This document shows, piece after piece, positions 22,719 to 40,134 of a stretch of DNA of 64,000 nucleotides (position 1 is its first letter; every line of letters begins with the position of its first letter). Position numbers and translations under genes: made by a program. The notes beneath the pieces were generated by a model that saw only the letters and a list, made by a program, of their open reading frames with translations, did not search any database and had not been told where the DNA came from. Source of the DNA: Escherichia coli (GTDB lineage Bacteria > Pseudomonadota > Gammaproteobacteria > Enterobacterales > Enterobacteriaceae). Where the stretch lies: the NCBI RefSeq assembly GCF_003334315.1, contig NZ_QOWR01000003.1; one strand, given 5' to 3'.

Positions 22719-24014
22719 TTAATCGCTGTTTTTGGCAATTAAACGTTCCGGGATAACAAAACTGAAACGTGTTCCTTTTCCTACTGTACTCTCAATATTC
22801 AGGCGACTTTCGTGATGATTCACCGCATGTTTCACGATCGCTAACCCTAATCCGCTACCGCCGGTTTGCCGGGAACGCGCTTTATCAACGCGATAAAAAC
22901 GCTCGGTCAGGCGCGGAATATGCTCCGGTGCAATGCCCGGTCCGTTATCTTCAATGCTAAATTCGGCACCGTGCGGCACTCGCTGCCAGCGTACGGTGAT
23001 ATGCGTACCTTCCGGCGTATGATTCACGGCGTTATAGACCAGGTTCGAAATCGCACTGCGTAGCTGATCTTCGTTGCCAGACACCTTGAGGCCGTTATCT
23101 ATCTCAAAGGTAAATGTCTGTTTTTTCTGACTCAGAGTCTGAGCCTCGCGCTCAACAACGCGCAGCATCATCGGCACATCAACCTTTTCATTGAGCAAAT
23201 GCGTCGGTGCGGCTTCTATTTTCGACAGCGTCAGTAATTGCTTCACCAGCCCTTCCATCCGCTGGGTCTGCTCGCGCATGGTGTGCAACGCTTTTTCACG
23301 TACCGCGCCTTCCAGCGGTTGCTCATCCATCATCTCCAGGTAACCCTGTAACACGGTCAATGGCGTACGTAACTCATGGCTCACGTTGGCAAAAAAGTTA
23401 CGCCGCGCCCCTTCCAGTTGATGCATTTGCGTGACATCACGCGCCACCATCAGTAACTGTTTGTGGGTATAAGGCATGACGCGAATTTCCAGATGCCGCC
23501 CGGTGTTGAGCACCAGATTGAGCGGGCGAGAAAAATCACGCGTTTTCAAATATTGCGTAAACTCCGGGTAACGCAGCAGGTTAAGGATGTTCTGCCCGTT
23601 ATCTTCCGGCCAGCGCAAACCAAGAATCTGTTGCGCCAGACCGTTACACCAGAAAATACCGCCCTCTTCCGTGGTCAGCACCACTGCGTCGGGCAGCGAC
23701 TCCGCGCCGCTACGAAAGCGTTTAATCAGATTGCCCAGTTCACGGCGGCGTTTTTTATTTCGCAGCTGCATCTGGTGTAAGCCGTATAGTAGCGGCTCCC
23801 AGCTACCACGCCCCGGTGGCGGGGTCATACTACGATCCACCCACAGCCACCATGAAAGGCGCAATAAATTCCAGAAATGCCAGATAAGCAGTCCCGTTAC
23901 CGATGCCAGCAAAAACCAGGGCAGGTAACCAAAAAATGCACCCAGGATGAAAGCCGGGAGGCAGCAAAGTAGCAGCTCCAGCACCAGCCTTTTCCACGAC
24001 AGCCGTTCCAGCAC
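22719..24014 (-). CDS. phoR: Phosphate regulon sensor histidine kinase PhoR
   Basis: 431-aa [30 protein letters not shown]...; H-box [11 protein letters not shown]. Confidence 0.97.
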
Positions 24015-24071
24015 GTAAGATACTCCAGTTAAGAAATCATAAGCCCTGCTCTGCGTCCGATGAACAAGGCG

Positions 24072-24761
24072 TTAAAAGCGGGTTGAAAAACGATATCCTG
24101 TACCGCGCACGGTCTGCACCATGCGGTCATGCCCGCCGGGCTCCAGTGCTTTACGCAGGCGACGAATGTGGACATCGACCGTGCGGTCTTCCACATACAC
24201 GTTAGTTCCCCAGACGTGGTTTAACAGCTGCTCGCGGCTGTACACGCGCTCAGGATGCGTCATAAAAAAGTGCAGCAGTTTAAATTCTGTCGGCCCCATC
24301 TCCAGTGGCTCTTCGCCCGCCATCACCCGGTGAGATGTCGGGTCGAGGCTTAGCCCCTGCATCTCAATCACCTCTTCCACCGCCATTGGCGAAATACGGC
24401 GCATTACCGCTTTGATTCGCGCCACCAGCTCCTTCGGCGAAAACGGCTTGGTGATATAGTCATCCGCGCCGGTTTCAAGGCCGCGCACGCGATCTTCTTC
24501 TTCCCCTCTGGCGGTCAACATCACCACTGGAATATCCCGGGTCATCGACTCGCGCTTGAGGTGTTTGATGAACTGGATACCGGAGCCGCCAGGTAACATC
24601 CAGTCAAGGAGAATTAAATCCGGCCAGGGTTCATTCAGTTGATTCACAGCACTGTCATAATCTTCCGCTTCGACCGGCTGAAAGCCATTTTGTTCGAGCA
24701 CGAAGCAGACCATTTCGCGAATTGGAGCTTCATCTTCTACGACCAGAATACGTCTCGCCAT
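24072..24761 (-). CDS. phoB: Phosphate regulon response regulator PhoB
   Basis: 229-aa [42 protein letters not shown]... Confidence 0.97.
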
Positions 24762-24814
24762 GATTTGCCCTGTTGTAATAAATAGGTTGCGATCATTAAT
24801 GCGACGTCATTATG

Positions 24815-24842
24815 CGTCAGATTTATGACAGATTTATGAAAA
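24815..24842 (-). promoter_or_regulatory. Pho box of the phoB promoter
   Basis: Reverse complement reads TTTTCATAAATCTGTCATAAATCTGACG (tandem CTGTCAT-type repeats) about 55-80 nt upstream of phoB ATG. Confidence 0.7.
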
Positions 24843-24950
24843 GCTCGTCGCACATATCTTCAGGTTATTGATTTCCGTGGCGCAGAAAAAAGCAAATGGC
24901 ACATCTGTTTGGGTATAATCGCGCCCATGCTTTTTCGCCAGGGAACCGTT

Positions 24951-26153
24951 ATGCGCATCCTTCACACCTCAGACTGGCATCTCGGCCAGAACTTCTACAG
25001 TAAAAGCCGCGAAGCTGAACATCAGGCTTTTCTTGACTGGCTGCTGGAAACAGCACAAACCCATCAGGTGGATGCGATTATTGTTGCTGGTGATGTTTTC
25101 GATACCGGCTCGCCGCCCAGTTACGCCCGCACGTTATACAACCGTTTTGTTGTCAATTTACAGCAAACTGGCTGTCATCTGGTGGTACTGGCAGGAAACC
25201 ATGACTCGGTCGCCACGCTGAATGAATCGCGCGATATCATGGCGTTCCTCAATACGACCGTGGTCGCCAGCGCCGGACATGCGCCGCAAATCTTGCCTCG
25301 TCGCGACGGGACGCCAGGCGCAGTGCTGTGCCCCATTCCGTTTTTACGTCCGCGTGACATTATTACCAGCCAGGCGGGGCTTAACGGTATTGAAAAACAG
25401 CAGCATTTACTGACAGCGATTACCGATTATTACCAACAACACTATGCCGATGCCTGCAAACTGCGCGGCGATCAGCCTCTGCCCATCATCGCCACGGGAC
25501 ATTTAACGACCGTGGGGGCCAGTAAAAGTGACGCCGTGCGTGACATTTATATTGGCACGCTGGACGCGTTTCCGGCACAAAACTTTCCACCAGTCGACTA
25601 CATCGCGCTCGGGCATATTCACCGCGCACAGATTATTGGCGGCATGGAACATGTTCGCTATTGCGGCTCCCCCATTCCACTGAGTTTTGATGAATGCGGT
25701 AAGAGTAAATATGTCCATCTGGTGACATTTTCAAACGGCAAATTAGAGAGCGTGGAAAACCTGAACGTACCGGTAACGCAACCCATGGCAGTGCTGAAAG
25801 GCGATCTGGCGTCGATTACCGCACAGCTGGAACAGTGGCGCGATGTATCGCAGGAGCCACCTGTCTGGCTGGATATCGAAATCACTACTGATGAGTATCT
25901 GCATGATATTCAGCGCAAAATCCAGGCATTAACCGAATCATTGCCTGTCGAAGTATTGCTGGTACGTCGGAGTCGTGAACAGCGCGAGCGTGTGTTAGCC
26001 AGCCAACAGCGTGAAACCCTCAGCGAACTCAGCGTCGAAGAGGTGTTCAATCGCCGTCTGGCACTGGAAGAACTGGATGAATCGCAGCAGCAACGTCTGC
26101 AGCATCTTTTCACCACGACGTTGCATACCCTCGCCGGAGAACACGAAGCATGA
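24951..26153 (+). CDS. sbcD: Nuclease SbcCD subunit D
   Basis: ORF track 24909..26153 trimmed to ATG 24951 ([20 protein letters not shown]...), 400 aa, calcineurin-like phosphoesterase. Confidence 0.95.
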
Positions 26154-30606: not shown

Positions 30607-30633
30607 GTTATAGTCTCGGTGCTCATTACTTAT

Positions 30634-30725
30634 TGCCGGATGCGGCGTGAACGCCTTATCCGCCCTACGCGGTTCTGGCACATTTTGCAGGCCTGATAAG
30701 ACGCGGCAAGCGTCGCATCAGGCAT
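30634..30725. repeat. BIME (REP units) between convergent araJ and mak
   Basis: GCCGGATGCGGCGTGAACGCCTTATCCG... and GGCCTGATAAGACGCGGCAAGCGTCGCATCAGGC. Confidence 0.7.
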
Positions 30726-38638: not shown

Positions 38639-40054
38639 TTATTTCAGCCCCAGGGCGGCTTTCATGGTGTAGAAGAGATCGGTCTGGTCGGTCAGTCCAA
38701 CGACATTGGCGGCATGTGGGCCATACGCCGCAATACGCAGCTGACTACCGGTATGTTCTTGTGAATCCTCTTCGGAGTTCCCGTAACTCATCACCATCAC
38801 TGCGCCATCTTTGGTATTTAGCGCCTGGGTGAGGCCCGGCGCTTTGGTGTCCGGCGCAACAATCTGGCTGGCGTGGGCGTGATCAGCGGTGACTATGACC
38901 AGCGTGTTGCCATCCTTTTTAGCGAATTCCAGCGCCCGTTGTACGGCTTCGTCGAGATCGACCGTCTCGCCAATTTGCCCACAAGGATTCGCAGCGTGAT
39001 CCTGTTTATCGATTGATGCACCTTCAACTTGCAGGAAAAAGCCTTTCTCATTTTTACTCAACAATTCAATGGCTTTATCAGTCATCTGCGCCAGGGTCGG
39101 TACGCTGTCATTACGTTGCGGATTAGGCGTACAGGTAACTGCGGGCTTGTCGATATTGCCGTGGTACGTTGCTTTCGGTCCTTGCCAGCGCACTGGCATA
39201 TTGCCGTCAGCAAACAGTCCTAGCAGGGGTTTTTGCTGGTTCGCTTCCGTCACCGCATTCAGTGAGGCAGCATCGCTCACCAACTGATAACCACGCGCCT
39301 GTGCCTGTTCACGCAGCGTTTTTCCCTGCCATTCACCGGCGGTTGCCGTTTCAGCAAAGGTTTTTGCGCCGCCGCCAAGCGTAACATCGGCACGAGCGTT
39401 AAGCAGCTGTTCGGTAATCGATCCTCTCCCGCCTTTTTCTAGCGCGTTACCCGGACATTTTTCACTGGTCGCGCTCGGACCGTAGCATTTGCGCGAGGTC
39501 ACATGTGCCACCAGCGCAGCGGGCGTGGCATCCTGCAACTCTGCGGTAGAAACGTTACCGGTCGCCAGACCTGCGGCTTTTGCCATTTCCAGAATCGTTG
39601 GGTGATCTTTTTCGTGAATATCGACGCCCAGCGCGCCGTTATAGGTTTTGACACCGGTTGACCAGGCGGTTGCTGATGCAGCCGAGTCGGTGACGTAGTC
39701 CGGTTTGCCGGTTTTTTTATTCAGCGCATAGTGAGTGTATTGCCCGGTAAGCGGTAAGGCATCGATACCTTTAAAAAAGCCGCCCGCACCTTCGGCATAA
39801 TTACGTGCGGCAGTAATTTCCGAATCCCCCATCCCATCGCCAATCAGCAAAATAATATTTTTTGCAGGTTTATCGCTAAGAGAATCACGCAGAGCGGCGG
39901 TCTGATCACCCGTTAAGCGGCGAGCACCGCCGGGTGCAGTAATATCGCCCTGAGCAGCCCGGTTTTCCAGAACAGGCATTTCTGGTGTCCGGGCTTTTGT
40001 CACAGGGGTAAACAGTAACGGTAAGAGTGCCAGTGCAATAGTGCTTTGTTTCAC
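38639..40054 (-). CDS. phoA: Alkaline phosphatase
   Basis: ORF track 38639..40123 trimmed to GTG 40052-40054 ([22 protein letters not shown] signal peptide), 471 aa; GGAGA Shine-Dalgarno upstream. Confidence 0.95.
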
Positions 40055-40114
40055 TTTATTTTCTCCATGTACAAATACATTAAAAAATAAAAACAAAGCG
40101 ACTATAAGTCTCGG

Positions 40115-40134
40115 CCGTGACAACTTTATGACAG
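40115..40134 (-). promoter_or_regulatory. Pho box of the phoA promoter
   Basis: Reverse complement reads CTGTCATAAAGTTGTCACGG, about 60 nt upstream of phoA start. Confidence 0.65.

Follow-up and report, generated by a model that had tools for sequence, protein, structure and literature searches.

The phoB-sbcD locus

The window analysed here is a stretch of 64,000 nucleotides from Escherichia coli (RefSeq assembly GCF_003334315.1, contig NZ_QOWR01000003.1). It contains the regulatory genes phoB and phoR and, divergent from them, the nuclease genes sbcD and sbcC (Table 1). Both the list of open reading frames and the RefSeq annotation of the matching E. coli chromosome place the spacer between phoB and sbcD at exactly 24762-24950, which bears out the divergent arrangement around a 189-bp spacer that the first-pass annotation had described. 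PhoB scores 540 bits against the NCBIfam equivalog NF007546 (cutoff 471) and SbcD 639.5 bits against the equivalog NF008206 (cutoff 450). The start of sbcC overlaps the stop of sbcD by 4 nt; the two genes are therefore one operon. In a sequence comparison, 24000-25300 was 100% identical to E. coli NZ_CP104618, and the spacer region was found in 5425 of 5426 complete E. coli genomes.

Table 1. Features of the phoB-sbcD locus and of the phoA promoter, with positions in the window
Feature	Position	Strand	Basis
phoR	22719-24014	-	ORF list; RefSeq annotation
phoB CDS, 229 aa, Pho regulon response regulator	24072-24761	-	ORF; RefSeq; NCBIfam NF007546
Intragenic PhoB site ATTCACAGCACTGTCATA, inside phoB CDS, points toward sbcD	24642-24659	+	Fitzgerald 2023 ChIP-seq
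phoB -10 hexamer CATAAT	24809-24814	-	Sequence; geometry; invariant in 4 genera
10-bp spacer AAATCTGACG, start of a third 11-bp-phased degenerate repeat CTGACGC	24815-24824	-	Sequence; match 24814-24831, 2 mismatches
Canonical 18-bp Pho box TTTTCATAAATCTGTCAT	24825-24842	-	Consensus search; published ChIP peaks; conservation
Unconserved 71-bp filler between Pho box and sbcD core promoter	24843-24913		No conserved columns in 4-genus alignment; length varies
Predicted sbcDC promoter -10 hexamer TATAAT	24914-24919	+	Sequence; conservation
Predicted short sbcD 5' UTR with T-run and ribosome-binding site AGGGAA (24940-24945)	24927-24950	+	Sequence; conserved T-run at about +5 to +7, conserved G
sbcD CDS, 400 aa, Mre11-type nuclease subunit	24951-26153	+	ORF; RefSeq; NCBIfam NF008206
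sbcC CDS, 1048 aa	26150-29296	+	ORF list; RefSeq annotation
phoA promoter: Pho box CTGTCATAAAGTTGTCAC (40117-40134), spacer GGCCGAGACT, -10 TATAGT (40101-40106), GTG start (40054)	40054-40134	-	

In E. coli, the open frame of sbcD extends upstream as far as a TTG (24909), and the predicted transcription start site coincides with an in-frame ATG (24927). Both codons were considered as alternative starts of sbcD and rejected because neither is conserved in relatives. The annotated start stands, and the upstream ATG and TTG look incidental. A terminator-like hairpin at 24910-24927 was discarded as spurious; it overlaps the -10 hexamer of sbcD and is not conserved. At the gathering threshold, Rfam yielded no RNA family within or near the phoB-sbcD spacer.

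Two observations were made elsewhere in the window. The only Rfam family found in it is naRNA4 (nucleoid-associated noncoding RNA 4), with matches at 61781-61858 (minus strand, 79.6 bits) and 63887-63962 (plus strand, 62.8 bits; gathering threshold 59.5). Furthermore, the gap between araJ and mak (about 30628-30725) carries a repeat of ~100 bp in one copy fewer than NZ_CP104618, a length difference of 104 bp by which the coordinates of the two sequences are offset past about 30.7 kb. This repeat is 82% similar to 61727-61922, which overlaps the first naRNA4 match, and the two sequences seem to differ in the copy number of a REP-type element.

The Pho box and the phoB promoter

To locate Pho boxes, we searched the whole 64-kb window for the consensus CTGTCATAWAWCTGTCAY with at most 3 mismatches, using 100 shuffles as control. 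We found 3 matches where 0.17 were expected, a number that none of the 100 shuffles reached. Two of them overlap each other upstream of phoB (24825-24842 and 24814-24831) and the third lies upstream of phoA (40117-40134). The search confirmed the place of the Pho box, which had been put at 24815-24842 (minus strand, TTTTCATAAATCTGTCATAAATCTGACG), with the canonical box at 24825-24842. Read from 24842 down to 24825, this box is TTTTCAT-AAAT-CTGTCAT and has 2 mismatches to the consensus; an 11-bp period separates its two cores, TTTTCAT and CTGTCAT. It shows two 11-bp direct repeats, each made of a 7-bp CTGTCAT-like core and an A/T-rich 4-bp segment.

Read on to 24809, the minus strand is TTTTCATAAAT CTGTCATAAAT CTGACG CATAAT. 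There are only three phased cores in E. coli, and the third, CTGACGC, agrees with the core at 4 of 7 positions and extends into the -10 hexamer. The description as a tandem Pho box is loose: a Pho-box site is present as claimed, but it consists of one canonical 18-mer and a degenerate third repeat, and two full boxes are absent. A tandem arrangement, taken as at least two full 18-bp boxes and at least four phased repeats, was not found in E. coli. Multiple Pho boxes occur in the promoters of pstS and ugpB.

Between the 18-bp box and the -10 hexamer of phoB there are exactly 10 bp, as at phoA, and a -35 hexamer is absent. The Pho box is on the strand of phoB and occupies the place of the -35, 10 bp upstream of the -10. 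From this geometry we predict a phoB start site at ~24802 (minus strand, range 24800-24803) and a 5' UTR of roughly 40 nt. A sigma-70 scan of 24500-25200 that required both hexamers returned no promoter. This result is uninformative because neither promoter in the spacer has a -35, and it fits an activator-dependent phoB promoter without a -35 next to an sbcD promoter that also lacks one.

A separate predicted core promoter for sbcDC

On the opposite strand, a perfect -10 hexamer, TATAAT, is found 31 nt before the ATG of sbcD and 71 bp beyond the Pho box. No -35 is recognisable for sbcDC in E. coli, and a profile of relatives anchored at the -10 has no conserved -35 position. Conserved in this profile are only the ribosome-binding site, a T-run in the short leader and single bases at -15 (G), -13 (T) and -6 (C). 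For sbcD, we predict a start at about 24926-24927 (plus strand). Most likely, sbcDC is read from a weak promoter having only a -10. A reverse-oriented PhoB-dependent sbcD promoter was also considered and rejected: after the Pho box, the sbcD-facing strand has just CATATC (3 of 6 positions), which is not conserved.

The two core promoters are placed back-to-back without overlap, and their predicted starts, at ~24802 (minus strand) and ~24926 (plus strand), are divergent and separated by ~124 bp. The centre of the Pho box is 117.5 bp from the ATG of sbcD, the same value as in Yang 2012 (PMC3465305), and at about -93 from the predicted sbcD start, with the box facing phoB. The first-pass annotation had proposed that the nuclease operon and the phosphate regulator share promoter space. 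The two genes indeed have a common intergenic region, but their core promoters are separate and the distance between the box and the -10 of sbcD is not conserved. A shared operator, taken as a box at a conserved functional distance to both core promoters, was not found; the box is 71 bp away from the sbcD -10 in E. coli and 68-193 bp away in relatives.

Conservation of the spacer among relatives

To compare the spacer across species, we scanned for PhoB proteins in one genome per species and obtained 80 loci, a very broad sample. Among these, divergent sbcD upstream of phoB was found only in Enterobacter sp., Citrobacter and Photorhabdus. The other loci, among them those of Arsenophonus, Vibrio, Pseudoalteromonas, Shewanella and Pseudomonas, lack it. 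In Vibrio, Pseudoalteromonas, Shewanella, Marinobacter, Zhongshania and others, which have no sbcD within 2.5 kb, a Pho-box match is nevertheless present 60-100 bp upstream of phoB. Such upstream matches, with 1-4 mismatches, were seen in many gammaproteobacteria and in one betaproteobacterial MAG; shuffled sequences rarely produce them. Since the box is found upstream of phoB where no sbcD is adjacent, we conclude that it travels with phoB and not with sbcD.

We aligned the spacer from 4 enterobacterial genera, whose loci were retrieved via the PhoB protein and hence independently of the motif. The alignment contains just two conserved islands. The first, TTCATAAATyTGTCAyAAAwCTGACGCATAATG, comprises the Pho box, the adjoining spacer and the -10 of phoB, and the second, GATTATA, is the sbcD -10 on the opposite strand. 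Both the Pho box and the phoB CATAAT are invariant in the 4 genera.

Because the PhoB scan gave only three sbcD-adjacent loci, too few for footprinting, we further scanned metagenome contigs with the Pho-box 33-mer of the first island and retrieved 120 loci. This set is unbiased for features of sbcD and covers box-bearing lineages only. Divergent sbcD was present at every locus with enough flank, with an SbcD identity of 61-100%. Of 90 distinct spacers, 89 have a TATA[AC]T near sbcD, and in 77 it is 30-34 nt from the ATG (shuffles: mean 0.39, maximum 2). The Pho box, in contrast, lies at 28 different distances from the sbcD -10 in these spacers, from 68 to 193 bp, without helical phasing (Rayleigh p ~0.30 at 10.5 bp). 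The predicted sbcD core promoter is anchored to sbcD, and the stretch up to the Pho box can vary freely. Such changes in spacing would be incompatible with a regulator that must contact RNA polymerase at sbcD.

Part of the length variation is visible as an insertion. At four loci (L090, L178, L129 and L089), a dispersed intergenic repeat of ~120-130 bp lies between the Pho box and the sbcD -10, with its end abutting the TATAAT. In E. coli genomes, the ~130-bp element is multicopy, unannotated and intergenic, with a median of 2 matching places per genome (maximum 5) at ~72% identity. We take the repeat to resemble ERIC/IRU.

In addition, many Enterobacterales relatives (loci L086, L145, L197, L137, L159 and others) carry extra Pho-box-like repeats on the sbcD side, 20 and 40 bp upstream of the primary box. 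The repeat nnGTCATnnnnnnGTCAT starts 20 bp upstream. At this offset the mean mismatch count dips to 9.4 (background about 12.7), with at most 5 mismatches in 9-11 of 43 non-redundant sequences. The half-site GTGTCATAAA starts 40 bp upstream. The period of 20 bp rather than 22 bp between boxes is unusual, and the extra repeats are putative PhoB sites. In E. coli, the 18-mers at -20 and -40 are degenerate and no second Pho box was found there.

The conserved pair could also have been selected for a functional link between phoBR and sbcDC, e.g. a shared non-PhoB regulator or coordinated chromosomal positioning. The divergent pair is kept at every Enterobacterales-type locus with enough flank, down to 61% SbcD identity, as such a link would lead one to expect. 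Yet the pair is absent in Vibrio, Shewanella, Pseudoalteromonas and Pseudomonas (outside the order) and in Arsenophonus, the conserved elements of the spacer are only the two separate core promoters, and synteny this deep is common via vertical inheritance alone. We thus consider selection for a functional link extremely unlikely. The adjacency of phoB and sbcDC is very probably inherited synteny within the Enterobacterales and not a regulatory module.

Published PhoB binding and sbcDC expression

Whether sbcDC responds to phosphate status had been described as not obvious from the sequence; this response has already been tested in print. PhoB binding at the locus is shown by published ChIP data. 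Fitzgerald 2023 (PMC10294691) reports a PhoB ChIP-seq peak assigned to sbcD/phoB (score 11) on the sequence TTTCATAAATCTGTCATA, Choudhary 2020 (PMC7657598) reports binding by ChIP-exo, and Yang 2012 (PMC3465305) reports a ChIP-chip peak on this Pho box. The Pho box of the window, TTTTCATAAATCTGTCAT, is identical to the sequence under the ChIP-seq and ChIP-chip peaks (PMC10294691, PMC3465305).

Expression is reported differently by these studies. In the RNA-seq data of Fitzgerald 2023 (PMC10294691), phoB RNA falls from 32,731 in the wild type to 34 in ΔphoB, i.e. about 1000-fold, and sbcD is at 274 in the wild type vs 271 in ΔphoB. In that study sbcD stands outside the genes accepted into the regulon (PMC10294691), and no mention of sbcD or sbcC was found in the searched supplements of that study. 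Choudhary 2020 (PMC7657598) found sbcD and sbcC not differentially expressed and filed them under "hypothetically functional binding" solely owing to their listing in RegulonDB. This listing under PhoB traces to Yang 2012 (PMC3465305), where with PhoB active sbcD had a log2 change of -0.64 (p = 0.049) and sbcC of -0.68 (p = 0.044), a ~1.6-fold decrease. Yang 2012 (PMC3465305) also observed a significant difference between wild type and ΔphoB with a luciferase reporter on a pGL3 plasmid. Fitzgerald 2023 thus sees sbcD unchanged and Choudhary 2020 no differential expression, whereas Yang 2012 sees a marginal decrease and a reporter difference. Each of these studies covers one growth condition.

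When we mapped the primers of Yang 2012 to the window, the reporter insert was found to be 24452-24950. The insert includes the complete phoB promoter, which faces the other way, as well as 310 bp of phoB with a second, intragenic PhoB site (24642-24659). The construct is multicopy and open to indirect effects. The intragenic site is the one detected in Fitzgerald 2023 (PMC10294691) at K-12 coordinate 417245 with a score of 5. It points toward sbcD, and there is no plausible -10 (TTCGAC) 10 bp downstream of it, which agrees with the view that intragenic PhoB sites are transcriptionally inert (PMC10294691).

These data allow for a weak effect, in which PhoB at the box, perhaps together with the intragenic site, would repress sbcDC in phosphate starvation and make it a minor member of the Pho regulon. 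Such repression would account for the ~1.6-fold lower sbcD and sbcC signals with PhoB active (p = 0.049 and 0.044) and for the different activities of the luciferase fusion in wild type and ΔphoB (PMC3465305), and PhoB occupies the spacer in three independent ChIP data sets. Against this reading, sbcD was at 274 vs 271 in RNA-seq and not differentially expressed in Choudhary 2020, and the array effect is right at the significance threshold. Furthermore, the reporter is a multicopy plasmid bearing a strongly induced opposite-facing phoB promoter, and the box is at about -93 from the predicted sbcD start, at a spacing that is not conserved. We therefore regard weak repression as unlikely. That PhoB occupancy has a small, condition-dependent negative effect on sbcDC, linking the processing of hairpins and DNA ends to phosphate status, is a slightly more doubtful suggestion. 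If true, this effect could be stronger in relatives with the -20 and -40 repeats, which reach toward the -35 position of sbcD, than in E. coli with its single box, and it would escape single-condition RNA-seq in E. coli K-12.

Alternatively, the coupling might be indirect, with strong phoB transcription shifting negative supercoiling or the availability of RNA polymerase and so modulating the sbcD promoter. The predicted starts are merely ~124 bp apart and divergent, and the sbcD promoter has a GC-rich discriminator, CGCGCCC. GC-rich discriminators are often associated with sensitivity to supercoiling. Nevertheless, RNA from the phoB locus drops from 32,731 to 34 in ΔphoB, about 1000-fold, while sbcD stays steady (274 vs 271), which argues against coupling by supercoiling or divergent transcription, and the length of the spacer varies freely among relatives. 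Such coupling is thus very unlikely.

Apart from the studies above, a literature search on the regulation of sbcDC (PhoB, RpoS, phosphate starvation, promoter) returned nothing useful. Expression of sbcDC is reportedly dependent on starvation and RpoS.

Two probably independent promoters in one spacer

We conclude that the spacer very probably contains two independent back-to-back promoters, with the Pho box serving phoB only and sbcDC read from its own -10. PhoB~P dimers bind head-to-tail on direct repeats and recruit region 4 of sigma-70 in place of a -35. This mode of recruitment needs a box beside the -10 and in one orientation. The box is so placed for phoB and not for sbcD, because it lies at about -93 from the predicted sbcD start and the wrong way round.

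In the mechanism that we propose, a phosphorylated PhoB dimer would bind the 18-bp Pho box at 24825-24842 on the minus strand. The box would stand in for the -35, 10 bp upstream of CATAAT, so that sigma-70 RNA polymerase would be recruited, and low phosphate would lead to positive autoregulation of phoBR. Transcription of sbcDC would start from its own weak promoter, with TATAAT at 24914-24919 on the plus strand, ~31 nt before the ATG, and no -35. PhoB at the box, ~93 bp upstream of the predicted sbcD start and facing phoB, would have no detectable effect on sbcDC. We infer the exact start sites and the contact with sigma-70, the latter from the established PhoB literature.

Of the earlier interpretation, the anatomy stands, whereas the suggested regulatory sharing is unsupported by the published data and the comparative sequence analysis. 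The finding that the first-pass annotation named as speaking against it, a PhoB-independent sbcD promoter at a distance from the Pho box, is largely what emerges, with published sbcD RNA unchanged and the promoter position predicted. The residual uncertainty concerns the marginal result of Yang 2012 and the predicted position of the sbcD start.

The locus is the textbook phoB autoregulatory promoter of E. coli beside a separate sbcDC promoter, which is already known and ordinary. The evidence behind database entries that count sbcDC among the PhoB targets is a marginal array result together with a plasmid reporter. Both the better RNA-seq data and the comparison of relatives point to a Pho box that serves only phoB. 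More generally, a ChIP peak in a divergent spacer is not automatically assignable to both genes.

Comparison with known PhoB-regulated promoters

Lastly, we compared the locus to known PhoB-regulated promoters. The phoBR promoter of E. coli K-12 is the same locus and nothing material differs: it has the same 18-bp box, the 10-bp distance, the same -10 and no -35. As in K-12, there is one canonical box here, whereas the promoters of pstS and ugpB contain several.

Example 1: the phoA promoter, which is located in the same window, follows the same logic as phoB in the 10 bp between box and -10 and in its orientation. It is bound and strongly regulated by PhoB (PMC10294691). In contrast to phoB, there is no divergent gene in the spacer; the upstream neighbour iraP is co-directional, with its stop codon just upstream.

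Example 2: cusR/cusC represents the divergent PhoB targets with true regulation in both directions. As at sbcD/phoB, one PhoB-bound site lies between divergent genes and is listed with the gene pair in the ChIP tables (PMC10294691). Here, cusC depends on PhoB (208 vs 50, flagged significant; PMC10294691). Thus, cusC responds to PhoB at the cusR/cusC site, whereas at sbcD/phoB it is phoB alone that responds, with sbcD at 274 vs 271.
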